Shown in pieces: positions 18,015 through 34,588 of a stretch of DNA of 64,000 bases (the first letter of the stretch is position 1; each line of letters starts with the position of its first letter). The stretch is from Candidatus Cloacimonadales bacterium (lineage in GTDB: Bacteria > Cloacimonadota > Cloacimonadia > Cloacimonadales > JAIOQZ01). The stretch spans positions 960,001 through 1,024,000 of the forward strand of contig OY762463.1 of the NCBI GenBank assembly GCA_963665815.1, written 5' to 3'. A program made the position numbers and the translations under genes. The notes under the pieces were generated by a model. It was not told where the DNA came from. It searched no databases and saw only the letters and a list, made by a program, of their open reading frames with translations.

Positions 18015-18255
18015 TTCATCTCCTTTCTGTCCAGATCTGTTTATCAGAAAGAAATTGCAGATATTGTCTATAATGAGAGAGACTCATAAAAACAGCAAGA
18101 TAATTTTTTGCAGCTCTTAATTACTCCCAAAACAAAAAACTTGCCCTCATGCTCTATACATTCATATTTTAGTTATAGTGACAATATGTGTTCTTTGCAT
18201 AATTGCAGTAGCTGACTCGATTTCAGACAGCAACCAATAGTTAGAAGGTGTTAAG

Positions 18256-20091
18256 ATGGAACTAAAAAAAGATATAAATTTTTTCGGGGTTTTCAGTATT
18301 GCCACCGGAGCAATGATCAGCTCAGGTATTTTCATTCTTCCGGGATTAGCGTTCACTATGGCAGGTCCTGCAATATTCCTTACCTACCTGCTGGCAGGTG
18401 TTCTTGCTCTGGCGGGAGTATTAAGCGTTATTGAACTGGCAACAGCCATGCCAAAATCCGGTGGAGATTTCTACTTCATCAACAAAACATTCGGTCCGTT
18501 GTTGGGGACAATTTCCGGATTCCTCGGTTGGTTTACCCTCTCACTAAAAAGTGCGTTTGCAATCTTCGGTATATCGGAGATTGTGTTCCTGTTCTGGGGT
18601 ATCAGTCCGTTAATATCCGGTCTTGTATTATGTACAATCTTTGTGATTATCAACATATTCGGAGTCAAGGAAGCTGTAGCCTTTCAGAATATACTTGTTG
18701 CCGGTTTACTGGCTTTAATGCTGGCTTACATCTCTTTCGGGCTGCCAAATGTGGATGCATCCAGAATAACAAATGTGCTCTCAACAGGTTTTAACACAAT
18801 CGTTATCACTGCCGGATTCGTTTTTATAGCCTATGGCGGCCTACTCCAGGTTGTAAACGTTTCCGAGGAAATAAATAACCCTAAAAGGAATATACCGCTG
18901 GGAATTATCTCCTCAATCACCGTAGTAACAATTATTTATACTATCATAACTTATATCATTACAGGTACACTACCTGCAAAAGAGTTCAGCGGATCTCTCA
19001 CACCGGTCGCTGACTCTGCCAGATTATTCATGGGAAGCCCCGGATTCTGGGCAATCAGTATTGCCTCACTCATTGCTTTTGTTACAACTGCCAATGCCGG
19101 AATTATGGCTGCTTCCAGATATCCTTTGGCTCTCAGTAGAGAACACCTTCTTCCGAGTGCGATCTCGAAAATCAACAAGAAGTTTAAGACTCCGTCCATA
19201 GCAATTATCCTGACAGGTGTCTTCATATATGTTTCACTCCTTCTACCTCTGGAGATGCTTGTAAAAGCAGCGTCTACAGTCGTTCTCACATCCTATGTAC
19301 TGACTAATATAGCTGTGATAATCTTTAGAGAAAGCAGAATCACAAACTATAAGCCAAGCTTTAAATCACCCTTTTATCCATGGCTGCAGATTATTACAAT
19401 TATATCATTCCTGCTGATCATTGCTGATATCGGAATGCAGGCTGTGGAAATCAGTTTGTCCCTGTTGGTCATCAGTATAGGTATCTACTTTGCCTATGGA
19501 AGGAAAGCCAAAAACAAGGAATACGCCTTCCTTCACCTGATGAAACGCTTTGTTGATGATAAGCTGACCGATAATCTTCTCGAAGACGAACTCAGGGATG
19601 TAGTTATTAATAGAGACAGTATTGAGCAGGATAGCTTCGATAAACTGATCAAGTCTGCAGAAATCATTGATATGGAGAACCAGGGTGATTACGAATATAT
19701 GCTGAAGTCAATAATGAATCAACTTGTGGAAAAGACTCAGATGGATCCGAAAGAACTGCTGAATAAATACTTGAATGCTCAGAAGGAAACTAATTTTGCT
19801 ATATCAGAATTTCTGGCTATCCCCCACATTGTTATAGATGGAACAGATAAATGCTTCCTGCTGATTATCAGAAACAAAAAGGGGATTAAGTTCACCGAGA
19901 ATGAGAATAAGGTTAATGCAGTTTTCGTGCTTGGTGGAACTAAAGACAAACGAGTCGTTCACCTGAGAAACATTGCATCAATCGCCTCCCTGGTGTATGA
20001 AGAGGACTTCCAAAAGAAGTGGATTAATGCTGAGAATGAGACTGAATTGAAAAACCTGATGCTTCTGAGTAGTAGGAAGAGGTATTTTTAG
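18256..20091 (+). CDS. APC-family amino acid permease fused to PTS EIIA-like domain
   Basis: GAMISSGIFILPG, ELATAMPKSGG, EEI.NPKRNIP, SR; C-terminal LAIPH. Confidence 0.92.
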   Translation: MELKKDINFFGVFSIATGAMISSGIFILPGLAFTMAGPAIFLTYLLAGVLALAGVLSVIELATAMPKSGGDFYFINKTFGPLLGTISGFLGWFTLSLKSAFAIFGISEIVFLFWGISPLISGLVLCTIFVIINIFGVKEAVAFQNILVAGLLALMLAYISFGLPNVDASRITNVLSTGFNTIVITAGFVFIAYGGLLQVVNVSEEINNPKRNIPLGIISSITVVTIIYTIITYIITGTLPAKEFSGSLTPVADSARLFMGSPGFWAISIASLIAFVTTANAGIMAASRYPLALSREHLLPSAISKINKKFKTPSIAIILTGVFIYVSLLLPLEMLVKAASTVVLTSYVLTNIAVIIFRESRITNYKPSFKSPFYPWLQIITIISFLLIIADIGMQAVEISLSLLVISIGIYFAYGRKAKNKEYAFLHLMKRFVDDKLTDNLLEDELRDVVINRDSIEQDSFDKLIKSAEIIDMENQGDYEYMLKSIMNQLVEKTQMDPKELLNKYLNAQKETNFAISEFLAIPHIVIDGTDKCFLLIIRNKKGIKFTENENKVNAVFVLGGTKDKRVVHLRNIASIASLVYEEDFQKKWINAENETELKNLMLLSSRKRYF

Positions 20092-20097
20092 GGGGAG

Positions 20098-20319
20098 TCA
20101 ATCCACCCTCAGCTTCCCCATGAAACGGATATAGTTTGTTTCTTTCGCCCCAATACGATGACCACAGTTTGGACAAAGGACATCATCATTTTCCTCTATG
20201 CAGTAGCTTTTCCGGATACAGGAATAATACATGCGGATTAGAGAGCCTTTCCCCACTTTCCTGTAGCGAAAGAGCTTCTGCTTGCAATCAGGACATTTGA
20301 TAGTTATGATTTTTTCCAT
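20098..20319 (-). CDS. Small Zn-ribbon protein
   Basis: CPDC...LFRYRKVGKG...CPNC. Confidence 0.75.
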   Translation of the reverse strand: MEKIITIKCPDCKQKLFRYRKVGKGSLIRMYYSCIRKSYCIEENDDVLCPNCGHRIGAKETNYIRFMGKLRVD

Positions 20320-20402
20320 ACCTTATCTAAGCTGAGTATACAATAGAGTCAAGGATTTATAAGTTGGTGCTAAAACATGACTTTTTCCCTTGGGATCAGC
20401 AC

Positions 20403-20590
20403 ACAGTGTGTATAAAAACAGATTTTGTCGCTTCACTCACTCAAAAACTACTTCCCTTCGACTCCGCTCAGGGTACTTACAACTCTAACTTTTTCAGTAA
20501 GTTAAGCTGATTGAGTCCCGAATAATCGGGAAAATCTACGACATAAATTATTGAAAATTTCAAGATATTTCGCGTTTTCACACAGTCTGT
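20403..20590. mobile_element. Putative non-autonomous MITE/REP-containing element
   Basis: Imperfect terminal IRs (13/17: ACAGTGTGTATAAAAAC vs revcomp ACAGACTGTGTGAAAAC) enclose CCCTTCGACTCCGCTCAGGG and CCCGAATAATCGGG hairpins. Confidence 0.5.
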
Positions 20591-20861
20591 CAATCAACAT
20601 AGATTATTCATCAAGAATTCTTATTCACTTCTTATAACTTCACTTAACATAACTTAAGAAAAGTTATTTTATATTAAGTATATTTTCTTTAATTTAAATT
20701 TTTGCTTGACAAATTATATGAATTATGTTTTCTGTCTCATCGAATGTTTTTAAACAACGAGAGCATGGTTCAACACAAATCAATATGGTGTGACATTGAT
20801 TAGATTTCAATCGAGTTAAAACTTACAAAGATAATAATTACTTTATGCAGGAGGTGACAAC

Positions 20862-21308
20862 ATGACCCATGAAGACTACAGTAACACAGCAAATGAGGAA
20901 ACTCAGGATATTCAGCATTCAGAACAGCATGCAGATAGTGAGAGATCTGTAGAGCAATCCAGAATTGATCTTTTGGAGAATGAAGTTGCGAGATATCGTG
21001 AGCAGGAATGGAATAAGTATGTTAAGTACTTCAAGGATGATGAGTACAGCAGAGACTTTGCCTTTCTACAAAAACGAACAGACGAATTTTCATTTTCCGA
21101 AAATGGAAAATCGCTTACTCCGGTTCAGTTAAAAAACAACCTTGAAAAGCTTAAGCCCTACATTGAAGCAGATGTATTCGGAGTCCTCAACAATCGTGTA
21201 AGACAAAAGACCGGGGCATTTAATCATTCGGAAAATAAACGTGCAATTCCATTCAAGAGTAACCAGAAAACAAGTTTTGCAGAGATTTTCAACATCTTTG
21301 ACAACTAA
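20862..21308 (+). CDS. Putative capsid scaffolding protein
   Basis: Acidic N-terminus, helical, directly upstream of the major capsid gene; SD GGAGGT. Function inferred from position. Confidence 0.55.
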   Translation: MTHEDYSNTANEETQDIQHSEQHADSERSVEQSRIDLLENEVARYREQEWNKYVKYFKDDEYSRDFAFLQKRTDEFSFSENGKSLTPVQLKNNLEKLKPYIEADVFGVLNNRVRQKTGAFNHSENKRAIPFKSNQKTSFAEIFNIFDN

Positions 21309-21325
21309 TACAAAGGAGAGCAAAT

Positions 21326-22282
21326 ATGCAACAGGCAACATTAATCAAACTTGCAGCAGCACATTCATTACCTGATCAGAAATCGATTATCGATTCTCTC
21401 GTTAACGAGTCCGGATTACTGAGAACCATGCCGTTCCAGAAGGCGAGTCACGGATTATTCCACAAGTACAAGGTGAAAACAGAGCTGCCTTCCGGTGGAT
21501 TCAGGAATGTAAATGGATCTATCACTCCTCATTCTACCAATGAAGAGGTTAAACAGATTGATCTTAAGATCCTGACCGATATTCAGCAGGAAGACAAAGC
21601 AATCTGCGAAGCCTATCCGGGTGGTGTGAAGAAGTTCTTTGCAGATGAGTTACCTGCTTTTGTGGAGGGGCTTGGACAGACTGCTGCCAAGCAATTCATT
21701 TATGGAACCGATCATGTGGGGTCAGAAGATGGTTTCAAAGGATTGCGTCAGTATGCACAGCAATTTGGTAACGAGATCAAACTCGGTGGATCAACAGGAA
21801 ATTCCACTTCCATACTCGTTGTCAGATGGAAAAAAGGTGTATGCTCGGGCTTATACAATGAACAGGCTTTTTCCAGGGGGCAATTGATTACTATCAAACC
21901 TATGAACAACGGAAATCCGGTAATGCTACCGTCCGATGCCGCAGCAGGTTCCATGAAACCGGTATATCAGGCATTGTATGAATCTTATCTTGGGCTTCTG
22001 GTAGCTGACAAGAAATGTACAGGGATGATCTCAGAGATATGCGAAGCCGAAAGCAAGAAACCAACTTCAGGTCAGATTGATCAGCTTATCGACCTTGTTA
22101 ACGGATCTGCCAACGACACGTTCATCTATCTTAACCGTGCATCGAGAAGACTTCTCTGGGAACTCAAGAATTCAAAAATGCAAACTGCTCCATCTGACAG
22201 GAACTACTCGACATCTATTGAGCTCTGGAATGGCATTCCGTTAGTTCTGGAAGAAAACATCACCTCAAACGAGACCGTATAG
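21326..22282 (+). CDS. Major capsid protein, BPP-1 Bbp17/epsilon15 gp7-like (HK97 fold)
   Basis: HKYKVKTELPSGGFRNVNGSITP, DKAI, FVEGLGQ...FIYG, F.GL..Y, GSTGNSTSILVVRW, WNGIPL...ENI...ETV. Confidence 0.88.
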   Translation: MQQATLIKLAAAHSLPDQKSIIDSLVNESGLLRTMPFQKASHGLFHKYKVKTELPSGGFRNVNGSITPHSTNEEVKQIDLKILTDIQQEDKAICEAYPGGVKKFFADELPAFVEGLGQTAAKQFIYGTDHVGSEDGFKGLRQYAQQFGNEIKLGGSTGNSTSILVVRWKKGVCSGLYNEQAFSRGQLITIKPMNNGNPVMLPSDAAAGSMKPVYQALYESYLGLLVADKKCTGMISEICEAESKKPTSGQIDQLIDLVNGSANDTFIYLNRASRRLLWELKNSKMQTAPSDRNYSTSIELWNGIPLVLEENITSNETV

Positions 22283-22290
22283 GAGGAAGC

Positions 22291-22740
22291 ATGAAGACAG
22301 GTAAAACAATTGATAATCTGATGGTTCTCAGTAACAGCCAGAACCTTCCGAACAACGGCAATTTACTTTCTGAGAAAGCAGTATTCGTGGGCAATCAAAA
22401 CAGTATAGCTGAAGTACAAGTTTATGCTGCTACAGACATAAATATTCCTGATGCCGGTGAATTCTCAATATCAGTACATGTATGCGAGGATCAGGAAAAA
22501 ACAAACGTCTCTTCCCCGTTCAATCCGGTTCTTTCCGGCTGGACAGACTCTCTTGCCATGAAAATCATTCAGCATGAAGCAGGGGCTGGAGATGTAGTAT
22601 TCAAGCAGGGAGAGAAAATTGCATCTTTCACTGTTCCGGAAGACTTTGCTCCTGACAAACCTTATTTATGTCTCAAGTATCAATCATCAGCTGACATGAG
22701 TTCTGCAAAAGTAGATGCTTTTGTACATGTAAGCGTATAG
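22291..22740 (+). CDS. Capsid cement/decoration protein (Bbp16-like)
   Basis: ID..MVLS.SQ N-terminus and YL.LKY......AKVDAFV C-terminus, beta-rich, directly after the MCP. Confidence 0.7.
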   Translation: MKTGKTIDNLMVLSNSQNLPNNGNLLSEKAVFVGNQNSIAEVQVYAATDINIPDAGEFSISVHVCEDQEKTNVSSPFNPVLSGWTDSLAMKIIQHEAGAGDVVFKQGEKIASFTVPEDFAPDKPYLCLKYQSSADMSSAKVDAFVHVSV

Positions 22741-22747
22741 TGTAAGC

Positions 22748-22786
22748 ATGGTTCGGATAGTAGTACTTTGCTGTCCGAACCATTTT
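22748..22786 (+). terminator. Hairpin/partial terminator between head and neck genes
   Basis: ATGGTTCGGATAG-loop-CTGTCCGAACCAT followed by TTT. Confidence 0.65.
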
Positions 22787-22801
22787 AAAAAGGAGGGATT
22801 T

Positions 22802-23209
22802 GTGAATTGGAGTGAATTATCTGCATCAGCTAATCAGCGTGTTCTGAATCTTGAAAATGAACTATCGGGCTTGGCAAAGGAAAAACTCGCTGAGAAAACA
22901 GATGCTGCAGTAACATTTCTGAAAGAAGAAATAATCAGAAATTGTGATATTGAAAGCGATTTCGATTTTTCCACCATTGATAATGCTGAAAATGCAGTAT
23001 ATATAGCTACGGTAAAGGCTCTGGAACTAATATTTTCTGATCTCTATACTGGATCAGGAAATAGTGTTTATAGAGAGAAGTCAATCAAATTCGGTTCTAT
23101 ATACAGAAGGGATTTCAAAATGAGTGTTGAGAATCTGACATATTCAACAGAAACATCTTCTGGAAGATTCTATCTGAAGAATACATTCTCAAGTATTTTT
23201 ATAAGGTAA
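22802..23209 (+). CDS. Putative head-tail adaptor
   Basis: GTG start after AGGAGG; helical 135 aa; position after capsid genes. Confidence 0.5.
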   Translation: MNWSELSASANQRVLNLENELSGLAKEKLAEKTDAAVTFLKEEIIRNCDIESDFDFSTIDNAENAVYIATVKALELIFSDLYTGSGNSVYREKSIKFGSIYRRDFKMSVENLTYSTETSSGRFYLKNTFSSIFIR

Positions 23210-23213
23210 AACA

Positions 23214-23645
23214 ATGTTCAGCATAATTAACAATATTAACTCACGTTTAGCTGAAATACTGCCTGAAACAGGATTACCTGTGCATATCCTTTCAGAAGAT
23301 GGTATGCAGACAAATCATGATATAAGTTCGTCTGTGATATTAGCAGATATAAGTTCTGTTTCCGATATAGAGGAAAAACCCGGATTAAGAACATGTTTCT
23401 CAGCAGATCTGAGCATCTGGCTTATATGCAGAAAGACAGGAAAGGTTGATGTGAACAAGATTCTGAGCAATATAAATGACATTATCTTGAATACTCTAAA
23501 GGACAGAGTTTTCAGATATCCACCAGCATTGAAAAGCATCGAGACCGTGAAGAAAGCACCAGTCTTGAGCAGTTCAGACTATAATCATTTCTTCATAAAA
23601 AAAGCAATTTATAAAATTGAGATTGAACAAAGCAACAGGAGCTAA
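23214..23645 (+). CDS. Putative tail terminator/neck protein
   Basis: 143 aa alpha/beta protein directly before the tail tube gene; positional inference. Confidence 0.5.
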   Translation: MFSIINNINSRLAEILPETGLPVHILSEDGMQTNHDISSSVILADISSVSDIEEKPGLRTCFSADLSIWLICRKTGKVDVNKILSNINDIILNTLKDRVFRYPPALKSIETVKKAPVLSSSDYNHFFIKKAIYKIEIEQSNRS

Positions 23646-23647
23646 AC

Positions 23648-24586
23648 ATGGATGGAATCCGATATGGTAATTCTTACAGAATACACATTTTCAATGAAAA
23701 CAGCTATGGTAAGTTATCCGGCAACTATGTTGATGATTACAGAGTTCTATGTAACTCTATATCTATCAAACCGGAAACTGAAACAATCGAAGTAAATGTA
23801 AAAACCAATAAAATTGAGCAAAAGCATTCAGAAAAGCTTGCAGGCAGAAAAAATGTAATTGTCACAATAAAAGGTGACTTATCACCAGATCATACTATCC
23901 TGCTTGAAGCATATTCAGGTAAAACAACATTTCCTTATGAACATCAGAACTCAAATGTTCCGCGATCTTATGAAATCCACCAGTTTTTCCTCAAAGATAG
24001 TAAAGCCAACATCATCAAAGGATGTGTTCTGGAAACATTGAAGCTTTCCGGAGATAATGGCAAAACAATTGAGTTTGAAGCAGTTTTCAGAGGACAATTA
24101 TTTGAATCGGAAATTGATTGTACAAAGGACAGATTCACTGAGTTTGTATTACTTGATCATACACCTGCTGTTCCGTTCGTCTGGGGAAATAGCGTTTCAA
24201 TATCTTTACTGGAAATGGCAGAATTTAACACATTCAATAAGTTCTCTATGAACATTTCAAATACTTTTATCAACGATGAGCTTCTTTATCAGAATTCATT
24301 TCTTAAACAATGCGAACTGATCAGCTGCTCCAGCGGTGAATTTGAGTTCTCATCCAATTATCTAATAAATGAAAAAGGATGGATGGAGCAGGAAATTCTC
24401 AAAGACACTCCATTCTACAATACTTTCACCTTGTCGAACGGTTCAGATTCCTGGAAACTTGAATTCTACAGCAAGATAACAGAGATTAATCCGTCTGATC
24501 CTGAGAAACAGATTTTCCAGTTTTCGGCCAAAACATCGTTATGTGCAACAGAGACAAATCCAATGCTGAAAATAAGCAATGTGTAG
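23648..24586 (+). CDS. Tail tube protein (non-contractile type)
   Basis: Beta-rich two-domain protein; GCVLETLKLSG, FSMNISN, L..YSKI patterns; precedes chaperone and tape measure. Confidence 0.7.
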   Translation: MDGIRYGNSYRIHIFNENSYGKLSGNYVDDYRVLCNSISIKPETETIEVNVKTNKIEQKHSEKLAGRKNVIVTIKGDLSPDHTILLEAYSGKTTFPYEHQNSNVPRSYEIHQFFLKDSKANIIKGCVLETLKLSGDNGKTIEFEAVFRGQLFESEIDCTKDRFTEFVLLDHTPAVPFVWGNSVSISLLEMAEFNTFNKFSMNISNTFINDELLYQNSFLKQCELISCSSGEFEFSSNYLINEKGWMEQEILKDTPFYNTFTLSNGSDSWKLEFYSKITEINPSDPEKQIFQFSAKTSLCATETNPMLKISNV

Positions 24587-24594
24587 GAGTGATT

Positions 24595-25301
24595 ATGAGT
24601 ATAGATATGAAAAGTTGTTTCGCAGACCATGGAGCATTCTTCATCAAACCGGTATACTATAAAGATACTAAGATTGCAGATATCAGGGCACTAAGACCTT
24701 TGGACAAGGATATGCTGCAGACGTATCTCGGGGAAATCTGTATTGTTGAAGGAGAACCGGTATACAAGAATATACAACCGGAGCATCTAAGGATAGCACG
24801 AATTGTACTTTCTCTTGGAGGAGAATTACACGGCAGAAAACACCGAATAAGCTCTGAAGGATGGACATTCGACAGAGATATCACAATGAATAATGTAAAT
24901 ATGCTGGACGAAGACATTATTGATACACTCGACAAAGCAATTTACGAGTTGGAAAAAGAGTACAATTCCAATAGGGAAATGTTAAAAAAAAACTAAAGGC
25001 AGCAGTAAGATTCCTGATTCTGAATGATAATGCTGATAAGCTGCTCTTTGAGGAAGCTGGAAGTATTACATTCTGTAAATATTGCTCAAACAACAGATAC
25101 TGTAGTAAGGATATGCGTTATCCGCGTATTCCGACAAACATTATGAAGGTGATCAAATACATATTTCTCAAACAGAAAGATATAACATTTCTGCCCTGGG
25201 GTAATATGCTGAGTAATCAACCGGTGTGGTTTCTTGAACTAAGTATGGCAGGACTGCAGATATTGCAGGAGATTAAGAACGAATCCGAGAAATCAGGTTG
25301 A
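24595..25301 (+). CDS. Tail assembly chaperone (24595-24996) with -1 frameshift extension to 25301
   Basis: A AAA AAC TAA at 24987-24996; the -1 frame (LKAAVRFLIL...) is open into ORF 25113-25301. Confidence 0.8.
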
Positions 25302-25317
25302 TACAGGTGGAGGGTAA

Positions 25318-26271
25318 ATGCAAGATATAAAACTTAATGTAGATATACAGACAGATAAAGGCAGAAGAAATCTAGGTAAGCTGGAAAACAATATTGATTC
25401 TGTGATAAAGAAGCTGATTGAAGCAAATCGGGAAATAACCAGAACACATGCTCAGTCAGAAAAGTCCGGGATAAAAAGTAAGGATAACGGTTTATACCAA
25501 TCCGGTTCGCATGGTTCAGGAGGCAAATCACTTGAAATGCAGAATCTGGATAGCATGGTTCAGATTCGTAAAGAAAAAGATCTGGAATATATTGAATGGA
25601 GAAAAGAACTGTGGATACAGGAGCACCAGTTTGAATATGCTCTTTTTCAGAGATCGATGGCTTCAGTTGAGAAAATGTACTCTAAGGCAATTGATTTGAT
25701 GATAGACAAAGATATGTCATGGAAAAAAGCTAATCAATTAGTAAAGGATTCATTGAAGGATCTGGCAAAATCTCTCCTGAAAGCAGTCGTTAAAACGTTA
25801 GTGCAGGCAGCAGTGCAATCTATTGCGTCCGGGCTGATAATTGAACGGGCTATGAAGAAACCGGCAATATTGACATCTCTCGCAACAGGTGGAACTAATT
25901 CCATTGGAGCTGTTGCAGGTATAAGAGCAACTCAGAGAGCAATGATGTTTTCTCAGGGCGGATATGTATCCGGTCAGGGTTCAGGTATTTCAGATTCTAT
26001 CCCTGCCTTTCTCTCTCACGGTGAATACGTCGTCAACGCGCAGGCAACCAGATCGAATAAAGATGTGCTCAATGATATCAACTCCGGATCTGGAGGAAGT
26101 ATCAGTGCAGGATTAGATAAAGTAGCCGGGCTCCTGAAAACAATCAACATGAATCTGGTGCGCAAGAACATGAGTGTGAATATTGTTAATGATCGCTTAG
26201 ATAATGAAACTGCTGTAATAAATCACGATCTTACCAGAAGAAAGATGATCCGCGGAGGATATAATGCATAA
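25318..26271 (+). CDS. Short tail tape measure protein (317 aa)
   Basis: DIKLNVDI N-terminus, helical Ala/Leu-rich core, FSQGGYVSG.GSG.SDSIPA.LS.GEYVVNA motif. Confidence 0.85.
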   Translation: MQDIKLNVDIQTDKGRRNLGKLENNIDSVIKKLIEANREITRTHAQSEKSGIKSKDNGLYQSGSHGSGGKSLEMQNLDSMVQIRKEKDLEYIEWRKELWIQEHQFEYALFQRSMASVEKMYSKAIDLMIDKDMSWKKANQLVKDSLKDLAKSLLKAVVKTLVQAAVQSIASGLIIERAMKKPAILTSLATGGTNSIGAVAGIRATQRAMMFSQGGYVSGQGSGISDSIPAFLSHGEYVVNAQATRSNKDVLNDINSGSGGSISAGLDKVAGLLKTINMNLVRKNMSVNIVNDRLDNETAVINHDLTRRKMIRGGYNA

Positions 26272-28030
26272 ATGGCAGATTATCAAGTATGAAAATGGCG
26301 GTATAGGAGGTAAATTCAATGGTAACTGCTATGTAAATCCTGATGGACGACTATCTGATAATCTACTGGCAATTCCGATTAAAATCAGGTACAGACATTA
26401 CAGATCCGGTGAATCAGAACAATATCTCTGGGGCGGAATGTATTACGGATTGAAAGTAATTGATGACATTGATTGCTACAATCTTCAGCTTAATATTGCA
26501 GGAGATGTATATTACATTCAAGACTTTTCAATGCACTACAACGAAACATATAATGTAGAAACATTCATTGTAAATGATGAGTTTACCTGCATAATAAGGG
26601 ATAAATGGAATAATCTAAGGTTTAAACATGTCACATCCGTCACAAATTCTTCTTTTGGCAGTATTCTTTTCTATATAGGCGCAGGAAGAATGTCTGATGC
26701 ATCTGCAGCACTTTGCTTCAAGGGAGTTATCTTCGCTTTTCAGTATTATGATGCAGTTGAAAATGAATATGCGAAACTGATATTCAGAAAAAACTATCTA
26801 AACGTGCAGGATTATGAGGTTGCAGATCATTTCAGGATTAAGAATGCAATCCTCTATAATGAATCTCCGGCTTTATTCTGGTCCGGGAAAACTGATATAT
26901 CAGATTATGTTGTCAGTCTTTCAAAGCTTAAATACAGAACAGACGATTATCATATTCCTCTAATCCAGAGAGCATCAATAACCTTGAAGAACGGAACTGA
27001 TCTGAAAATAGATGATATTGTAAGCATAAAGGATTCACTGACAGACAGCATACAGTATATATATCGAGTCAAATCCATAAAATCTGAGGAATACAATCAG
27101 AGTGTCATTGAAATGGAAGATATACTGGGAGATCTGTCAGATGTATACATGAGAAACATCCTTCGTAACACAAACTCTTTTTCTGTGCTTCGTTACGACT
27201 GGTGGAATACACTTGATCCGATATATTTCACAGGGAACTACCAGATAACAGAATACTTTCATGATCCGTTCAATCCGGATTACTGCTGGATATCATTTCT
27301 GTTTCTGATTAAAATGCTGTATGGTGTTCTGGAAATTGATTACATGTTAAATATTGATGTTTCCGAACTTGAAAGCAGTATATCCTATCTTAAGCAAAAT
27401 CAAAGTAATATCAGTTTCAAAGCGATTGCATTGAATCTCTATATTCTTAGAAGCATTGGCAATAATAAAGATGGCGATTGTCAGACAAATATATTACAGA
27501 TTGTCAGAAGCCTTTTCAACGCATTGAGGATTTCATACAGAATTTTTGATTCATCTATAAAACTTGAAGAAATTGATAACTCAGATATTCTTTATCCTGT
27601 CACAAATCGTCTAACATATCGTGAAACAATCACAGACAGCGTAAACGGTTATGCAATAAGCTGTAATCGACTAAGCACTTCACAAGATTACTGGAATAAC
27701 GATATTGACTGGAGTAATACTGTTTCAAACGAGTATTTTGTATCTCCATCAGATGAAATGCTGAGAAACAGTCTGGAAAAACTCACCCTGCCTGATCATT
27801 TCAACATTGGCATACATGGATCAGTTAATAATCATTTTTCAGTTGTGAATCCTGCCATTGAACAGCAGTTAGCAGTGAAACTTAACGAATTGTACACGGG
27901 GAAGAAACTGGAAACAGAATACTCCCATTGTTTCACTCCAACACATTTGTGCAGTTATTCAATTAAGGAAGATGATATTGTAAACAATATCAGTGAAGTT
28001 AAACTTCAAAGCTATCAAGGAGGATTATAA
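26264..28030 (+). CDS. Tail tip/hub protein with N-terminal lectin(LamG)-like region
   Basis: Follows the TMP; FYIG...FKGVI...Y ConA-like motif, then DISDYV-type tail domain. Confidence 0.5.
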   Translation: MHKWQIIKYENGGIGGKFNGNCYVNPDGRLSDNLLAIPIKIRYRHYRSGESEQYLWGGMYYGLKVIDDIDCYNLQLNIAGDVYYIQDFSMHYNETYNVETFIVNDEFTCIIRDKWNNLRFKHVTSVTNSSFGSILFYIGAGRMSDASAALCFKGVIFAFQYYDAVENEYAKLIFRKNYLNVQDYEVADHFRIKNAILYNESPALFWSGKTDISDYVVSLSKLKYRTDDYHIPLIQRASITLKNGTDLKIDDIVSIKDSLTDSIQYIYRVKSIKSEEYNQSVIEMEDILGDLSDVYMRNILRNTNSFSVLRYDWWNTLDPIYFTGNYQITEYFHDPFNPDYCWISFLFLIKMLYGVLEIDYMLNIDVSELESSISYLKQNQSNISFKAIALNLYILRSIGNNKDGDCQTNILQIVRSLFNALRISYRIFDSSIKLEEIDNSDILYPVTNRLTYRETITDSVNGYAISCNRLSTSQDYWNNDIDWSNTVSNEYFVSPSDEMLRNSLEKLTLPDHFNIGIHGSVNNHFSVVNPAIEQQLAVKLNELYTGKKLETEYSHCFTPTHLCSYSIKEDDIVNNISEVKLQSYQGGL

Positions 28031-28464
28031 TGGCTTTCTGGGGCAAAAAATCACCGGTTATACTTTATGGAGGAAGTTTTTCTCTGGAATGGAACCTGAA
28101 TCAGCTTGATTGTACTTACAACTATTCATGGAATAAAGAAAGAGTTCTGCACAAATCTGTAATCACAGGTAAAATGTGGTCTTATGACCTTTCCCAAAAT
28201 CCTGAACAAGGAAGAATGCACATAGATATCACAATGTTTAACATGACTGAAGCAGATATGGCAATATTTCTGTCACTACGCAACAACACGTCCATTAAAG
28301 TGAGAATGCACGATGATGGTGATGCAGCACCATGGGAGGAAGTATTTCTGATTGAGCAGTATCAGCCATTTGCAGGTACAGAAGCTGAAATTCCCTATCC
28401 AGCTTTTGACTGTGGTTTTCTTAAACTTGTATCAGAGAACTATATTAATCTGCCTGATACATAA
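28030..28464 (+). CDS. Putative distal tail (Dit-like) protein
   Basis: TAATG-coupled, 144 aa, HKSVITG pattern; positional inference. Confidence 0.45.
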   Translation: MAFWGKKSPVILYGGSFSLEWNLNQLDCTYNYSWNKERVLHKSVITGKMWSYDLSQNPEQGRMHIDITMFNMTEADMAIFLSLRNNTSIKVRMHDDGDAAPWEEVFLIEQYQPFAGTEAEIPYPAFDCGFLKLVSENYINLPDT

Positions 28465-28509
28465 TTTTTTATGACTATTGCAAAGCAAATCAATAATAAA
28501 GGAGGACAT

Positions 28510-28845
28510 ATGATTATTGAATGGAAGACAATAGCTGTAATTTTGTCGCTTTCAGGTACACTGGTGAATATTGTTATATCATTCTCCAAGCATTCGGCAA
28601 TGATAAAGAGAAATTCCGAGAAAATTAAAGAGCATTCAGAAACTTTAAAAAACTCGAATAATGATATAAGGGCAATCAATAAAAACTGCCAGAAAAATCA
28701 GCTCCATTTTGAGGGAAAGTATATCAGTCGTGAAGCTCTTGAGCTAAAATTTGATAATCTTGAAAACAAGATTGACGAGTTAAGTAAACAGATACATTAT
28801 ATGAACACTAATTTTGTAAAACAGTATATTGAATTGAACTGCTGA
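28510..28845 (+). CDS. Holin-like single-TM plus coiled-coil protein
   Basis: SD GGAGG; N-terminal TM, KFDNLENKIDEL coiled coil; end of tail operon. Confidence 0.5.
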   Translation: MIIEWKTIAVILSLSGTLVNIVISFSKHSAMIKRNSEKIKEHSETLKNSNNDIRAINKNCQKNQLHFEGKYISREALELKFDNLENKIDELSKQIHYMNTNFVKQYIELNC

Positions 28846-29121
28846 GCAATGAAAAAAGTGAGTTTTAACAGTCAGAATATTATCCTAATAATGTTTTCTG
28901 AGGCAATATTCAAAAAAATCAGCTGTAAAACACTGTTAGTTAAAGATCTGTTGATTTCTGCAAATCAAACATCAAATAGTTGTAAATTGTAATATTCCGC
29001 ATAACAACTATTGTTCATGACTTATAATATGTCGATTCATTCTTTACACGAAAAAACAGACTGTAGATATTTTTTGATTGACAAAAACCTTGTTAAGACA
29101 TAATTTATATATGAGGTAATT

Positions 29122-29508
29122 ATGAAATCCATGAAAATATTTGTTATCTTAATAATGAGTATCTTTCTTTTTAATTGTGCTGTTTCTTCAGGTTCTACAA
29201 GAAGATCCGGAGGAAACACGAATTATCGTCAATACATGACAAATGCAAAAGATTTTGCAAAGAATTATGAATGGAAGCAAGCTGCGGATGAGATGGAGAA
29301 TTCTCTGGATTTATATGAAACAGGAGAAGGTTACTATCTTGCAGGAGTATACTACATTAAAGCTTCCATAAATTCTGACAATGATTACACAGCGAAGAGC
29401 CTTTATAAAAAAGGAAAGAAATACTTAAAGATTTCTGCAACTGATTTTGGGTATAAACCTGCAGAAAAAACACTAGAAGATATAAAAAGCCTTAAAACCT
29501 ATAAATAA
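29122..29508 (+). CDS. TPR-like lipoprotein
   Basis: LFNC lipobox, helical-repeat pattern. Confidence 0.65.
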   Translation: MKSMKIFVILIMSIFLFNCAVSSGSTRRSGGNTNYRQYMTNAKDFAKNYEWKQAADEMENSLDLYETGEGYYLAGVYYIKASINSDNDYTAKSLYKKGKKYLKISATDFGYKPAEKTLEDIKSLKTYK

Positions 29509-29567
29509 AAAACATCGTAAATAATAGATATTCAAACTATCAACCAATCAAACTCTTTGGAGAAACC

Positions 29568-29948
29568 ATGAAGAGAATGGCTATTATTATTTTACTGATT
29601 ACTGTATTTTTTTTAGTTGGATGCAGCAGATTCAAAACGTTGTCTAACAACACTGCGACTTATCCGGATGGAAAGGTTGCAAGAGCTTTTTCTTTTTATG
29701 TGAAAGACTTTCAGAATGATAACCTTACATGGTCTGAAATCGAAAAATTTTCATCAGAACAATACACTTCAGATGTTGATACTCTCTACATATACTATTT
29801 TGATGAAGAAATGGTCGGATCAACTATCAGAGGTTTAAAACTGAAAAGAAGTTACAGAAAAAAATGTATTGCGATTTTTAAACAAATACCGGGCAATAAA
29901 AGTCGTTTAATTCAATTTCCTTTCGAGGAGTCCAGACTTAATCAATAA
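29568..29948 (+). CDS. Hypothetical lipoprotein
   Basis: LVGC lipobox. Confidence 0.7.
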   Translation: MKRMAIIILLITVFFLVGCSRFKTLSNNTATYPDGKVARAFSFYVKDFQNDNLTWSEIEKFSSEQYTSDVDTLYIYYFDEEMVGSTIRGLKLKRSYRKKCIAIFKQIPGNKSRLIQFPFEESRLNQ

Positions 29949-30141
29949 ATGGTAGAATTCTGTGAGTAAGATTTCCAATTGCTGAATTAGTAATAATCAT
30001 TATGGAAGCAATTATTGTTATAATTGTGATAATTACAGCAGCATAAGTTATTTTATTCTCATATTTCCGAAGCAAGTGGGGTTGGAAATACCAGATATAT
30101 CCAATAACTATAATCAAAACTAAAGCAATAATCTCTATCAT
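29938..30141 (-). CDS. Small two-TM membrane protein
   Basis: SD AGGAG, two hydrophobic segments. Confidence 0.55.
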   Translation of the reverse strand: MIEIIALVLIIVIGYIWYFQPHLLRKYENKITYAAVIITIITIIASIMIITNSAIGNLTHRILPFID

Positions 30142-30192
30142 TTACGGAATCTTCTCCTTTTAAAAATTACATGTTTATCTAAGAGGGCAAAA

Positions 30193-30519
30193 ATGGCAAG
30201 TAATTTAAAAAAACAAGTAACAAATATTTATCCGAAAAACAATGAAAACAGAAAAACCGAATATAATTGTTCCAAGACAGTTGAAACTGAGATAAAAGCT
30301 GCTCAGGAAAATGATTTAAAAGTTGTAAGTACTCTTATCCTGACTCTTGAAGAACTGTTTTCAAGCAATGAACTTGACCTGAAAACTGCATCATCAATAT
30401 TGAATCAGCTTGTTACAACCAGAAAAAATATTCTGTCATACAATATTGTTGAAAACAGCTCAGGTCAGAACTGGATCAATTCCATGCAGATAAGGGATTT
30501 ACATGGAAAATCAATATAA
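30193..30519 (+). CDS. Putative terminase small subunit
   Basis: 108 aa helical protein overlapping the terL start; no obvious HTH. Confidence 0.5.
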   Translation: MASNLKKQVTNIYPKNNENRKTEYNCSKTVETEIKAAQENDLKVVSTLILTLEELFSSNELDLKTASSILNQLVTTRKNILSYNIVENSSGQNWINSMQIRDLHGKSI

Positions 30520-31930
30520 CAAACTCCTCAGCTCAGGAAATAGTTACATCCAGCTCAACAGAAACCAGATTGTATTTTTTAATTCAATAAGTAATTATGA
30601 TATTGTTGTTGATTCCGGGACCTGGCGAAGTGGAAAATCCTTCGGGCTCTGTCTTTTTGCAATTCTTCGAATGAAGAAATATCCGGGTATCAGACAGTTC
30701 ATTGGTCGCAAGGAAATGTCATCTCTGAAAGAAACCACATTCCTTAAATTTCTGGAAATTCTTACGGTGTTCTTCAACTTAACTGAGAAAACAGACTTTA
30801 AAGTTGTTACTACTCCAAGACCACAGATTACTTTCCCAAATGGATCTGTCTGTGTTTTCGGTGATTTGGATACAACCCGTGTAAATAAATGGCTTTCTGC
30901 CGAATATTCTGATGTCATGATAGATGAAGGACAAGAAATCTCAGAGATTGCCTTTGATAAAATCAGATCCAGACAAACTCAAACAATTATTGAGAAGCAT
31001 TCAAAAGGAAAATCCTGCAATAAATGTATCATGGTAATGAATCCCCCGGAAACAGCCGAGAGACATTGGACACACAGTAAATTCAGAAATCCTGCCACGA
31101 AAGTAAAGAATTCAATCATTATCTACTCAACACTTAAAAATAATACTCAGAATATTCCGGGAAATTATCTCGAAAATATGCTGAACTCTGTGGACAAAAA
31201 CATTGCTGACATTTACTTGAATGGAATGTGGAAGCCACTTAATACACACCTTGTTTATCCTGATTACAATTTTCATCAGGACTCTGACGGTAACTATAAT
31301 GAAGGTGGTAATCTTAAGTTTCTTAACTACAGAGACGATCTTGATAACTATATGTCTATTGATTTTGGCTGGGTGCATCCAATGTCAATAGGCTGCTGGC
31401 AATACGACAGAAACAATAACAAATTGTACAGACTTTATGAGGTTGTAGAATCATTCATGAAACCTGAAAAATACTGTACTCTTCTGCAAGGTGAAAAGAT
31501 CATTCATAACAATCGAGAATATAAGCTCCCTTTCTCAATTATGGATTCAGTTATAGTTGTTGGACCCGAATGCAGACAGAGAAGACAGGAAAGCAGCGGT
31601 AAAAGCAATCTTGATATAATGAAATCGCACTTCAAAAACAAGTTCAAGATAAATATAAAAATTGTGAGTACTTCTATACAGAAATCCATACTTGCAGTCA
31701 GAGCCATGATTCTTGATGCATCAGGGAACAGACATCTTTTCATTGATCCAAGGCATAATACAAGATTTATAAAAGACTGCTGCAGTTATCATTATCCTGT
31801 AGATAAAGAAGGTAATATAACGAGTGAAGACCCGGAAAAAGACAATATTTCTGATCATACACAGGATGAAACACGATATTTAATAAGCTACTTATATAAA
31901 AGAGGAAACACAAACTGGCAAACATCATAG
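30503..31930 (+). CDS. terL: Terminase large subunit
   Basis: Walker A GTWRSGKS, Walker B VMIDEGQE, MNP coupling motif, nuclease SIDFG...P and DHTQDETRY. Confidence 0.95.
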   Translation: MENQYNKLLSSGNSYIQLNRNQIVFFNSISNYDIVVDSGTWRSGKSFGLCLFAILRMKKYPGIRQFIGRKEMSSLKETTFLKFLEILTVFFNLTEKTDFKVVTTPRPQITFPNGSVCVFGDLDTTRVNKWLSAEYSDVMIDEGQEISEIAFDKIRSRQTQTIIEKHSKGKSCNKCIMVMNPPETAERHWTHSKFRNPATKVKNSIIIYSTLKNNTQNIPGNYLENMLNSVDKNIADIYLNGMWKPLNTHLVYPDYNFHQDSDGNYNEGGNLKFLNYRDDLDNYMSIDFGWVHPMSIGCWQYDRNNNKLYRLYEVVESFMKPEKYCTLLQGEKIIHNNREYKLPFSIMDSVIVVGPECRQRRQESSGKSNLDIMKSHFKNKFKINIKIVSTSIQKSILAVRAMILDASGNRHLFIDPRHNTRFIKDCCSYHYPVDKEGNITSEDPEKDNISDHTQDETRYLISYLYKRGNTNWQTS

Positions 31931-31944
31931 AAAAAGGAGGGATT

Positions 31945-33321
31945 ATGAGTTTAATAAGAGAATCATTAATGAGGGCAAAATGGAATGATGACATGGCAAG
32001 ACGTTCCAGAATGCAGAAATATCTTGATTATTACAGAGATGACTGCAGTTCCTATATAAAATCGGAAATAAGTAATCTGGTCAATCCTCAGGAAAGTACA
32101 GAGTTATGCAAATATGTTGAACACGACAATATAACCAGCAGAATGATAGACTCAATTTCATTAATATTCAAAGAAAAAGTAAATGTTTCCATAAGCTGCA
32201 GCACAGAAACAGATACAGAGAAAGCTCAGGTTCTGCTCAATGATTTACTGGATGGTCTGAACTTTCATGTAACTATGAAGGAAGTGGAAAAACTGTCGAA
32301 ACTGGTATTTGATATAGCAGTAATTCCACAAATAAGAAACAACAAGATCGAACTTGATATTATAACACCAGAAAAGGCATTCGTAAAACAAAGCAATGAA
32401 GATCCGACAAAAGCTGAAGCCTTCTTCTATCAGACCGGAATTCTCACAAATACCACATCCCCCAATCCTATTCATGAATACCATTTCTGGACCAGAGAAG
32501 GTAAGTTCTCATGTATGATTGATGATACAGGCAATCCATTTAACATAACACTGTTAATGGAGTGGAATCATCCTGAGATTTTTCCGGTTATCATGTTCAG
32601 AAATTATCTTCCTATTGATTCTTTCTGGTATGATGGTTTAAATCCGATAGTTGAAAAAAACATTATCATCGATTTAAAAAGAACTGATATGTCTATGGCT
32701 GAAGCCTATAATATACCCCAGAGAATTAATCGTGGTGTACCTGAGGAACAGGAGATAAAGCTAGGCAGAACATTTGCAATGAACATACCACTGCCTGAGA
32801 ACGAGCAACCCCTTGGTGATGCAAAATACATTAAGCCTGATGAGAATCTTACAGAGCTTGATAAATGTATACTGAACAGAATAGAGCAGCTTGGTCTTTC
32901 CCTGGGACTGTCAAAATCCATAATTACGGGTCAATCGGCAACATCCGGATATGAACTTGCCTTATCGAAATACGAGATTGTTGAGAGAAATAAGTCTGAG
33001 CGTGATTACTATATTCAGCCTTTAAGGGATCTGGTCAGGTTAATAATTATCATGACGAAAGATTGCAATGGATACGACTTTCCCGATAACCCCGAGATAA
33101 AAGTAGACTTTGGAGAGATCAGATTCTCGCAGTCCGAACTTGAGAAAGCAAGAACCAGATATTATAAGCTTGTTTATGGAATTGCTTCAAGAATAGATAT
33201 AATTATGGAGGATAACCCTGATTTAACAAGAGAACAGGCAATTGTAAAAGCAAAGCAGATTGACAGAGAAGAATTGGATTTTGGTAAGAAATTCGATAAT
33301 CTGTCTATCTCAAGCTTTTAG
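31945..33321 (+). CDS. Portal protein (SPP1 gp6-like)
   Basis: Follows terL; YLDYY, NIT...ID, FPVIMF, ATSG..L, MEDNPDLTREQA C-terminus. Confidence 0.85.
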   Translation: MSLIRESLMRAKWNDDMARRSRMQKYLDYYRDDCSSYIKSEISNLVNPQESTELCKYVEHDNITSRMIDSISLIFKEKVNVSISCSTETDTEKAQVLLNDLLDGLNFHVTMKEVEKLSKLVFDIAVIPQIRNNKIELDIITPEKAFVKQSNEDPTKAEAFFYQTGILTNTTSPNPIHEYHFWTREGKFSCMIDDTGNPFNITLLMEWNHPEIFPVIMFRNYLPIDSFWYDGLNPIVEKNIIIDLKRTDMSMAEAYNIPQRINRGVPEEQEIKLGRTFAMNIPLPENEQPLGDAKYIKPDENLTELDKCILNRIEQLGLSLGLSKSIITGQSATSGYELALSKYEIVERNKSERDYYIQPLRDLVRLIIIMTKDCNGYDFPDNPEIKVDFGEIRFSQSELEKARTRYYKLVYGIASRIDIIMEDNPDLTREQAIVKAKQIDREELDFGKKFDNLSISSF

Positions 33322-33344
33322 TCGTTAACCTCAGTGTAAGTATG

Positions 33345-33380
33345 AAAAGAAAAAGCTCCGTTACAAACGGAGCACTTTTC
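33345..33380. terminator. Bidirectional terminator closing the virion module
   Basis: AAAAGCTCCGTT-ACA-AACGGAGCACTTTT between convergent genes. Confidence 0.75.
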
Positions 33381-33424
33381 ATAACCAAATATATTTTTGC
33401 ATAAGCTTATTCTATTATCGGCTA

Positions 33425-34129
33425 TTACAGAATATCTTTAATTTTTTTTGTATTTAAAGAATCAATTTCAATTATTTCCAAGCCATTAATAAAGCTAAGC
33501 GTTTCTGCATCATCATGATAGCGTCTGTAAATTTTTTCTATCCTGTCGACAATTCCTGGTTCGTGAGGAAATTTTCTGAGAGCTTTTTTCATATATTCAT
33601 TTCCAAAGCTCTCTCTTTTAAAACTGTAGTATGTCTTTGCCAAATCAAAATAAAGATCAATATTCTCAGGTTCAATGTCATGGGCTTTTTTCAGGTTTTC
33701 TACTGCAAGATCATATTTTCTGGAAACAGCGTAATAAAGCCCCATGTTCCTGAAAGACTCCATGTAGTAAGGATCAATTTCAAGAGCTTTCATAAAATAA
33801 TTAATAGCATTATAATCTGATACAGAAAATGTCTTTCCGATAAGGTTATAAGCTTCAGGATCGCTTGCATTCTTCATCACATAATCTTTAAGTAACTTCT
33901 GCGCTTTGTTAAGATCATCCAGACCATAATAACATTGAGCTATACGTTTTTGAAAAATAAGCTTATTGGGGGCTTTTTTCTGTCCCTTTTCAAACATAGA
34001 AAGAGCTTCTTCATATTTTCCTTCTTCAAACAATTTCTGCCCTTTGACATAATAATCTCTGTACTGATCTCCACAAGCCATCAGAGAAAGCAGTAAACAA
34101 ACAATGAATATTGATATTTTTTTATGCAT
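33425..34129 (-). CDS. TPR lipoprotein
   Basis: LMAC lipobox, several TPR repeats. Confidence 0.85.
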   Translation of the reverse strand: MHKKISIFIVCLLLSLMACGDQYRDYYVKGQKLFEEGKYEEALSMFEKGQKKAPNKLIFQKRIAQCYYGLDDLNKAQKLLKDYVMKNASDPEAYNLIGKTFSVSDYNAINYFMKALEIDPYYMESFRNMGLYYAVSRKYDLAVENLKKAHDIEPENIDLYFDLAKTYYSFKRESFGNEYMKKALRKFPHEPGIVDRIEKIYRRYHDDAETLSFINGLEIIEIDSLNTKKIKDIL

Positions 34130-34588
34130 TTTAAACCTTTTCTTTTTTTTATGATATACGCTTCAATCAGTGTTTTGCAAAACTCATAGAACACATCTCA
34201 GTTTTCTGAATTACAACGTAAATATAAATTTCTGTAAAAAAAACATATTATTAAAATTTTGGCAAGTAATTATTGCTGAATTTACATTAGTAATACTGAT
34301 ACAAGTTGTTTCATCATGCAATCTTTTGGTATGCAGCTACATTAGAAAAGACTTTTGTATAATTTGGGTAGCTGACTCGATTCTAGAATTCATCTAATAA
34401 TCTCTCAAAGCAAGCATTCCTGATAAGTTTTCCTGATGAATACAAAAATCTCATTGATACTTTTAGCAAAAATTACTGATTTCACTGTTACACATAGTAC
34501 TCAGCAGATAAACTGAGTGAAGAAATATCTTAAAGTTATTGACAAAGTTCGAACATAATTAATTATAAAAAATAAAACAGAGGTGCTT

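Follow-up and report, generated by a model that had tools for sequence, protein, structure and literature searches.

We analyzed a cluster of phage-like genes in a Cloacimonadales bacterium. The DNA studied, which we call the window, is a stretch of 64,000 nucleotides (positions 960001-1024000) of its single-contig genome (G000; 3.96 Mb, 98.7% complete), and coordinates are those of the window unless another genome or contig is named. ORF calling gave 17 plus-strand open reading frames (ORFs; g01 to g17) across positions 20862-33321, predicted to encode the head, the tail and the DNA packaging machinery of a particle. An earlier note, made from the letters alone, had taken the host to be Cloacimonadota-like, which was correct, and had proposed that the cluster is a domesticated gene transfer agent (GTA).

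Genes and signals at the locus

The features of the locus are listed below, with the basis of each label in parentheses.

Upstream flank: LCM methyltransferase, SPFH, APC permease with EIIA, and Zn ribbon (host genes)
20699-20712, plus strand: promoter block TTTTTGCTTGACAA, with the -35 hexamer at 20706-20711, 150 nt upstream of g01
20862-21308, plus strand: g01, 148 aa, acidic, putative scaffold (position before the capsid gene; no family match)
21326-22282, plus strand: g02, major capsid protein (MCP) of the GP7 (BPP-1/epsilon15) type (PF20911, 1.5e-25; phrog_212)
22291-22740, plus strand: g03, 149 aa, head-associated, with the putative label 'cement' (position kept in 9 of 9 genomes, 21-83% identity)
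22748-23645, plus strand: g04 (153 aa) and g05 (143 aa), putative head-tail connectors (position only; no family match)
23648-24586, plus strand: g06, 312 aa, tail tube of the double-domain T5 pb6 / P74-26 type (phrog_290, fold)
24541-25301, plus strand: g07 and g08, tail assembly chaperone with a programmed -1 frameshift of the G/GT type (slippery A-run at 24984-24992)
25318-26271, plus strand: g09, 317 aa, tape measure (best match phrog_25241, 8.9e-18)
26264-28030, plus strand: g10, 588 aa, tail tip or receptor-binding candidate (position; Atlas lead)
28030-28464, plus strand: g11, 144 aa, conserved tail-end protein (no family match)
28471-28845, plus strand: g12, 124 aa, N-terminal transmembrane (TM) helix and coiled coil, putative holin- or spanin-like protein
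29122-29948, plus strand: g13 (128 aa) and g14 (126 aa), predicted lipoproteins (signal peptide and lipobox Cys)
29938-30141, minus strand: antisense ORF between g14 and g15, 67 aa, hydrophobic (two TM helices by eye)
30193-30519, plus strand: g15, 108 aa, TerS-like (small terminase), overlapping the TerL start
30503-31930, plus strand: g16, large terminase TerL, 475 aa, type A, with Terminase_3 relatives (phrog_979)
31945-33321, plus strand: g17, portal (PF05133, phrog_533)
33355-33373, no strand assigned: bidirectional terminator-like hairpin at the end of the cluster
Downstream flank: TPR protein, 1320-aa beta-helix protein, FeMo-cofactor-like proteins and Fe-S ATPases (host genes)

The ORFs are tightly packed, with Shine-Dalgarno (SD) sites and no lesions, as had been claimed. 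All 17 are intact. Only three gaps between ORFs are longer than 100 nt (28846-29121, 29949-30192 and 24997-25112), and the last of these is spanned by the frameshift. An SD-like motif lies at most 20 nt from the start of 14 of the 17 ORFs (none for g04, g07 or g12). There was no step in GC content at the borders of the block, and Pfam matches bore out the description of the flanks as ordinary host genes, on the APC permease/Zn ribbon side and on the TPR side. In Logan contigs of three runs of one sample, a single 57.7-kb contig covers 20508-37000 without alternative joints. A look-up of RNA runs listed none that contain the locus.

We compared the cluster to other genomes of the phylum. G000 and the congeneric G001 are genus g1; G002 (fragmentary) is genus g2; G003, G005, G006 and G007 are genus g3; and G004 is genus g4. 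These eight genomes make up family f1. Two genomes outside the family are also named below: G011 (family f5) and G119 (family f3). Ratios of nonsynonymous to synonymous substitution (dN/dS) are pairwise NG86 values.

The gene labels of the earlier note stood in part. Those for the MCP, tube, chaperone frameshift, tape measure, TerL and portal were borne out by family, fold or sequence. The labels scaffold (g01), cement (g03), neck (g04 and g05), tip (g10 and g11), holin-like (g12) and TerS-like (g15) have position or composition as their sole basis, and Pfam and PHROG matches of g01, g03-g05, g08, g11 and g13-g15 were at chance level at most. Weak homologues of g01 (22-29% identity) are found at the equivalent position in other genera, and g11 follows g10 in all seven genomes that have a complete block. 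The Atlas lead for g10 is to viral Laminin_G_3 proteins (score 0.97) and is to be read as a lead only.

The capsid is of the BPP-1/epsilon15 type, as had been proposed: besides the PF20911 match, BPP-1 is among the phage matches of g02. The AlphaFold2 (AF2) model of g06 was of low confidence (pLDDT 57.7, pTM 0.63). The top Foldseek matches of g06 were siphophage major tail proteins (SH-Ab15497, T5 pb6 and P74-26; E 1.8e-10 to 5.7e-5). We assign g06 as the tube because of the pTM, the consistent Foldseek matches and phrog_290 taken together, although the pLDDT is low. The tape measure candidate g09 matched 12 PHROG families, of which eight are named tape measure and four have no function in their name.

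The chaperone frameshift is conserved. The end of g07 reads TTA AAA AAA AAC TAA (24982-24996), and reading in the -1 frame can continue for 105 aa, through g08, as far as 25301. Outside the window genome, the comparison took in G003, G004, G005 and G006. In G003, G005 and G006, CGA AAA AAC is followed by TGA or TAA and then by a homologous -1 extension (96-125 aa). A homologous -1 extension is open in G004 also, but without a run of the CGA AAA AAC type.

The motifs of TerL were indeed intact. Walker A is at residues 39-46 and VMIDE is at residues 138-142. An alignment of 19 relatives, including g16, had 82 invariant columns, among them D141, D287, D447, D451 and D455, and PF04466 was found in 20 of 28 database relatives. 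The TerS-like protein g15 is without the 34-residue helix-turn-helix (HTH)-like N-terminal segment that its G002 homologue has, and its AF2 model, made from an alignment of three sequences, is a two-helix hairpin only.

The genes between the tail and packaging genes are found less widely. At the loci of g3 and g4 no homologue of g12 to g15 was detectable; a homologue of g15 is present in G002. The g12 gene was seen in genus g1 only, with weak matches to phrog_1009 and phrog_739 and a weak homologue in a prophage of G001. The lipoprotein genes g13 and g14 have a TTGACA promoter-like site of their own, with the upstream region kept in G001, and the proteins are 80-90% identical there. The antisense ORF (76% identity in G001, dN/dS 0.16) could encode a small membrane protein, a holin-like protein or an immunity protein.

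The promoter block is shared by the family. The 14-mer TTTTTGCTTGACAA occurs only once in the G000 genome. All eight family genomes, from all four genera, have it upstream of the scaffold gene, exact or nearly so and with an invariant core, CTTGACA. The yield of a generic promoter scan did not exceed chance (54 found, 50.5 expected). Rfam gave no match in 20000-34600, and only a chance-level match to the L20 leader in the leader of G003. Separately, the leader of the head-tail operon in g2, g3 and g4 has a shared hairpin, CCGGTGGCATGCACCG, followed by TAAAAAATGA (L016:7300-7345 and equivalents). The stem of this hairpin is invariant, with no covariation and no Rfam match, and the hairpin is not evident in G000 or G001. 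In G003, G006 and G007, two paralogous 133-aa genes in tandem (L016:5858-6259 and 6478-6879) immediately precede the head-tail promoter. Their products are 52% identical to each other, have no family match, and could be regulators.

Distribution, split loci and selection

The MCP is present throughout one family. It was found in 9 of 41 relatives, and a profile of the MCP had matches in 10 of the 232 phylum genomes. They comprise all eight genomes of f1 and 2 of the 224 outside it: the single genome of f5 (G011, 49% identity) and one of 98 in f3 (G119, 35%), with none among the 125 others. That is, the distribution within the family is not patchy. This was one of the checks that the earlier note had proposed, together with synteny, agreement with the host tree, and dN/dS.

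Synteny was complete within genus g1. G001 has all 17 genes in the same order and at the same locus, between the APC permease/Zn-ribbon genes and the TPR/beta-helix genes. In G002 to G007 (g2, g3 and g4) the block from the scaffold gene to g11 is collinear, the flanks are different, and no terminase or portal gene lies beside the block. Portal homologues (49-54% identity) are at a separate locus in G003, G004, G005 and G006. This packaging locus of g3 and g4 consists of TerS (143 aa, phrog_309), TerL (411 aa, Terminase_6N/6C) and the portal, among host genes. In G003 the two blocks are at 189,910 and 2,506,928 on one 3.89-Mb contig (a closed chromosome), about 1.6 Mb apart; in G005 they are 383 kb apart, and G004 and G006 have them on separate contigs. 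Thus, there is a single 12.5-kb locus in G000 and G001 and there are two loci in G003 to G006. Since the loci are split in g3 and g4, the element cannot move there as one unit.

The surroundings of the blocks were conserved within genera. Flanks are common to the species within g3. Between genera the neighborhoods are scrambled, and G000 and G003 share only the adjacency of dnaX and a family 2 glycosyltransferase gene (GT2). The packaging locus of G003 comes after dnaX and the glycosyltransferase gene. After the portal, G003, G005 and G006 have a 285-aa gene. A MORN-repeat protein is encoded after the portal in g3 and, at only 28% identity, in g4 (G004). A 299-aa ORF that follows g11 in g3 and g4 only, and is absent from the window, has a dN/dS of 0.22-0.29. 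Outside the family, the tube gene of the G011 block (contig C328; L065 3927-5859) is present as a tandem pair of paralogues (324 and 319 aa).

The genes of the cluster are under purifying selection, with dN/dS far below 1 (0.005-0.19). Between G000 and G001, dN/dS ranged from 0.005 (the MCP, with 99% identity) to 0.17; g04 and g05 (62-64% identity) had values of 0.06-0.17, and five genes had saturated dS with dN of 0.10-0.26. Within g3, dN/dS was 0.03-0.19 for g01 to g11 and 0.06-0.09 for the portal, with saturated dS. Apart from one gene in two of the comparisons, dS within g3 was above 1, and the divergence was like that of the flanking host genes.

These values bear on whether the cluster is a decaying and functionless remnant of a defective prophage, kept by chance or recently arrived. 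It does look like a structural-only prophage fragment, and such remnants are common (a Mu-like one lies at 88.5-97 kb in G000), but all of its ORFs are intact even though dS is saturated (above 1), dN/dS is 0.005-0.19, the frameshift and the promoter are conserved across genera, and 8 of 8 family genomes have it. A remnant is strongly disfavored by these data, and we find it barely credible.

Divergence of the cluster followed that of the host, and the gene trees were without conflict with RpoB. RpoB is 99% identical within g1, 93-96% within g3, 79-82% between genera and 76-78% to G011, and identities of the cluster proteins rank in the same way (Spearman rho 0.52-0.84, from 15-28 pairs that are not independent). 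The RpoB tree of g3 is (G005,(G003,(G006,G007))), and a tree from seven cluster proteins has the same order. Support at the inner g3 nodes was 89/92 and 66/71, and the starred nodes agree between the trees. The stem of g1 is long in the cluster tree (1.54 vs about 0.6 for G002 and G004). The GC content of the cluster tracks that of the host (36.8 vs 36.0% in G000, 52.1 vs 52.1% in G003, and 62.6 vs 56.5% in G004).

Autonomy genes, mobility and exchange

The earlier note had reported no integrase, repressor, replication gene, endolysin or attachment (att) repeat, and this held up. PHROG and Pfam scans of the 17 ORFs and 14 neighbors found no integrase, repressor, replication or endolysin family, and the same scans found no transposase or primase in or beside the block. 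A repeat search found no direct repeat bracketing the block and no att-like site. Two regions where short-read contigs break, 20402-20592 and 34354-34467, were considered as att sites and rejected as dispersed host repeats; they have up to 20 and 8 overlapping matches in the genome, respectively, counting themselves. These intergenic repeats, and another at 18194-18239, resemble miniature inverted-repeat transposable elements (MITEs) or repetitive extragenic palindromes (REPs), and contigs of all three runs break there.

Genes for mobility were found elsewhere in the genome. G000 has four tyrosine recombinase genes (at 2.06, 3.29, 3.44 and 3.81 Mb), all more than 1 Mb from the block. In and next to the block we found none of the parts of an intact prophage (integrase or transposase, att, repressor, replication and lysis modules). 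Nor did we find the integrase or replication initiator/primase of satellites such as phage-inducible chromosomal islands (PICIs), capsid-forming PICIs and P4-like elements; these use helper tails, and here a full tail module is present. A Mu-like remnant in G000 (C1:88500-97200) encodes a CI-like repressor, a MuA-like transposase, a MuB-like protein and a TerL (phrog_38), has a truncated head-morphogenesis gene, and is followed by host genes. It was considered as the missing half of a prophage and rejected, as it has a TerL of its own from another family. A search for a complementary prophage half, also proposed earlier, found none. G001 has a separate Mu-like prophage of about 30 kb (C13:64700-94000). 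It encodes a tape measure of 989 aa and an MCP of the GP7 family with 35% identity to g02. The phage type ancestral to the cluster may have a living relative in this prophage.

The packaging enzymes have been exchanged. The 475-aa TerL of g1 is found in 3 of 232 genomes of the phylum: G000, G001 and, as a fragment, G002. The TerL of g3 and g4 has no BLAST homology to it except for one weak match (24% over 322 aa, in G005), and the g3/g4 type is also found next to a portal fragment in G011. Based on this lack of homology and the type in G011, the enzyme pair was replaced. Comparison to the outgroup places the replacement, probably, in the g1/g2 lineage.

It is possible to imagine that the element is still mobile, either as a helper-dependent satellite or as the part of a Mu-like or other temperate phage lineage, specific to this host family, that supplies the structural genes, and that it re-inserts or recombines repeatedly. 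Mu-like phages need neither an integrase nor an att site, the Mu-like prophage of G001 has a GP7-family MCP, and G000 has its Mu-like remnant; but the phrog_38 TerL of the remnant shows that it is not the missing half, and no transposase, primase or integrase is in or beside the block. Repeated recombination would also fit the displacement of TerS and TerL between genera and a divergence of the G000 and G001 clusters that exceeds that of housekeeping genes. Against it stand the identical flanks in the two g1 species and among the g3 species, the split loci of g3 and g4, a GC content that tracks each host, and the 57.7-kb contig without alternative joints. We regard a still-mobile element as highly improbable.

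Host genes of G000 and G001 are themselves heterogeneous in divergence. Host orthologues are 83-100% identical, with dS of 0.08-2.5. Over about 112 kb they fall into two divergence classes (dS 0.08-0.67 and 0.86-2.5), and the gene order is scrambled. These classes suggest mosaic genomes and frequent recombination between related lineages.

Relation to known systems and proposed role

The cluster is only distantly related to known phages. The best matches of the MCP were 21-29% identical in IMG/VR, and in 50,697 phage records identity did not exceed 29%, with 26% to Bbp17 of BPP-1. TerL was at most 21% identical to phage sequences, and a scan of IMG/VR with TerL gave no match. That is, we found none of the near-identical phages that the earlier note had asked about. 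In a set of 5.8 billion proteins only 20 matched the MCP at E of 1e-20 or below, and the four of these whose contigs are longest (1.28 to 3.9 Mb) were 65-99% identical. A metagenome scan with the MCP profile found only relatives of 32-34% identity, on contigs of at most 5 kb. Relatives of the MCP or TerL on longer metagenome contigs were found on P0003 (168 kb), P0018 (64 kb), P0011 (38 kb), P0035 (109 kb) and P0039 (55 kb).

Podophages like BPP-1 and epsilon15 are autonomous, short-tailed and about 40 kb. They share the MCP family (PF20911, GP7) with the cluster described here. In contrast, the cluster combines a tape measure and a G/GT chaperone with a tube of the siphophage type, and we found no module for replication, lysogeny or lysis in it.

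The capsid also sets the cluster apart from the RcGTA-type GTAs of Alphaproteobacteria (Rhodobacter capsulatus and Caulobacter), whose parts appear unrelated to its own. We take the MCP of RcGTA to be of the HK97-type Phage_capsid family. The only Pfam match of g02 is PF20911 (GP7) and, judged from family and not from RcGTA sequences, g02 is not an RcGTA-like MCP. The double-domain tube like that of T5 and P74-26, the order of head and tail genes followed by packaging genes, and the host phylum are different as well. Regulation of the CtrA/GafA type, which RcGTA has, is not known for the Cloacimonadales element. The two also share several features. Both are compact clusters (about 12-15 kb) of head, tail and packaging genes without autonomy genes, inherited vertically in a host clade under purifying selection. 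The tail is short and siphovirus-like in RcGTA and is predicted to be so here, and g15 may resemble the small TerS of RcGTA in having no DNA-binding domain.

Other GTAs have their particle genes at separate chromosomal loci, as do the g3 and g4 relatives. This is the case for VSH-1 (BhGTA) of Brachyspira hyodysenteriae, whose 'divided genome' paper is cited in PMC11841831, and for the GTA candidate of Faecalibacterium, with GTA I and II operons about 125 kb apart (bioRxiv 10.1101/2024.11.15.623857). In the window genome, in contrast, the blocks are adjacent, and morphology and sequences differ; the Faecalibacterium element is podovirus-like. For these systems there are particle and DNA data, whereas genes are what is known of the Cloacimonadales element. 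The same two sources give four marks of a GTA: a gene set for structure only, more than one locus, vertical inheritance, and a TerS that has no DNA-binding domain (PMC11841831; bioRxiv 10.1101/2024.11.15.623857). By these marks, the element would behave like a GTA.

The cluster is intact at saturated dS, present family-wide, host-like in composition, and has a common promoter and, in two genera, split loci. A decaying remnant would not account for this, and the same points argue against a self-mobile phage or satellite. The sequence comparisons give good support to a domesticated, phage-derived particle system that is vertically inherited in one Cloacimonadales family. It is most likely a GTA-like element, which we consider rather probable, and we infer random packaging, release and delivery from its genes. 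Each computational check suggested in the earlier note favored domestication. The element is less static than that note implied, with its swap of TerS and TerL and its fast divergence within a genus.

If the element is GTA-like, the host would transcribe the head-tail operon from the conserved TTGACA-type promoter with its long leader. A procapsid would be built from scaffold, portal and the GP7-type capsid protein, and the TerS-like protein and TerL would fill it by headful packaging. The TerS-like protein of g1 is without the HTH, and there would therefore be little sequence specificity in packaging, allowing uptake of host DNA. The tube, the G/GT chaperone and the 317-aa tape measure would form a short siphovirus-like tail, g10 may bind recipient cells, and release would need lysis functions encoded elsewhere.

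Several observations weigh against a vertically inherited GTA-like element. Seven of the 17 ORFs were without a family match in Pfam and PHROG at the thresholds used, and lysis genes and regulators were not identified; some of the ORFs without a family match may be novel regulators. Family f1 is sampled by eight genomes, all of them metagenome-assembled. The portal was not found in G007 (90% complete) or in the fragmentary G002. The genera have different flanks, and neither the RpoB tree nor the cluster tree resolves the nodes between them. All cluster proteins except the MCP are 62-85% identical between G000 and G001, vs 99% for RpoB and GyrB. TerS and TerL are of unrelated types in g1/g2 and in g3/g4 and G011, and the portal is common to both; therefore, there was recombination with phages or acquisition more than once. 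The TerS of g3 has sub-threshold HTH matches. Finally, at 12.5 kb in G000, one headful might hold all of the genes.

It is also possible that the domesticated particles have another role, as a PBSX-like killer of competitors or as a decoy or defense against related phages. PBSX has a contractile tail, carries its repressor and lysis genes within the element, and acts by killing and not by transfer. Like the PBSX-like prophages of Bacillus, the cluster is a host-kept locus for phage-like particles that would be non-infectious, and the evidence from conservation and selection fits such a role equally well. The tip candidate g10, which together with g05 is the least conserved protein (62% identity in G001, 26-30% in other genera), fits an arms race. 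Yet the tail is of a non-contractile kind with a tape measure, unlike known contractile tailocins, and none of the PBSX features (contractile tail, own regulators and lysis genes) was found. The terminase, TerS-like protein and portal are kept intact, and a pure killing device would not need them. According to bioRxiv 10.1101/2024.11.15.623857, PBSX does package host DNA. Overall, a killer or decoy is the chief alternative to a GTA-like element but seems unlikely to us.

A further step beyond a GTA-like element is that the Cloacimonadales clusters are an independent GTA family, the first in the phylum, which combines a BPP-1-type capsid with a T5-like non-contractile tail. Such a family would predate the divergence of at least four genera, and after domestication it would have undergone a swap of the packaging pair, loss of the TerS HTH, and joining of the loci in one genus. 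We propose this tentatively, as somewhat less likely than not. If there is such a family, it may be what makes synonymous divergence between G000 and G001 low in some genes and high in others.

To our knowledge, proven GTAs are few and nearly all are from Alphaproteobacteria. Cloacimonadota are abundant in anaerobic digesters and wastewater. A search of one literature library found no paper linking 'gene transfer agent' with Cloacimonadota or Cloacimonetes, and in a pangenome preprint on the phylum prophages appear only as a category of the clusters of orthologous groups (COG). PMC11841831 states that new GTA lineages cannot be found by homology and asks whether GTAs outside Alphaproteobacteria are isolated or widespread. 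The cluster is a concrete, sequence-defined GTA candidate in an uncultured phylum. Furthermore, the compact locus, the split loci and the swapped terminase are a natural series in one family, from which one can learn how a phage is taken apart and reassembled under the control of its host.

Downstream of the cluster, the ORF at 34583-38545 encodes a secreted right-handed beta-helix protein of 1320 aa with about four internal repeats of roughly 620 nt. This protein evolves fast (78% identity in G001), and it has only three paralogues in G000. A distant homologue is encoded near the packaging locus of G005.

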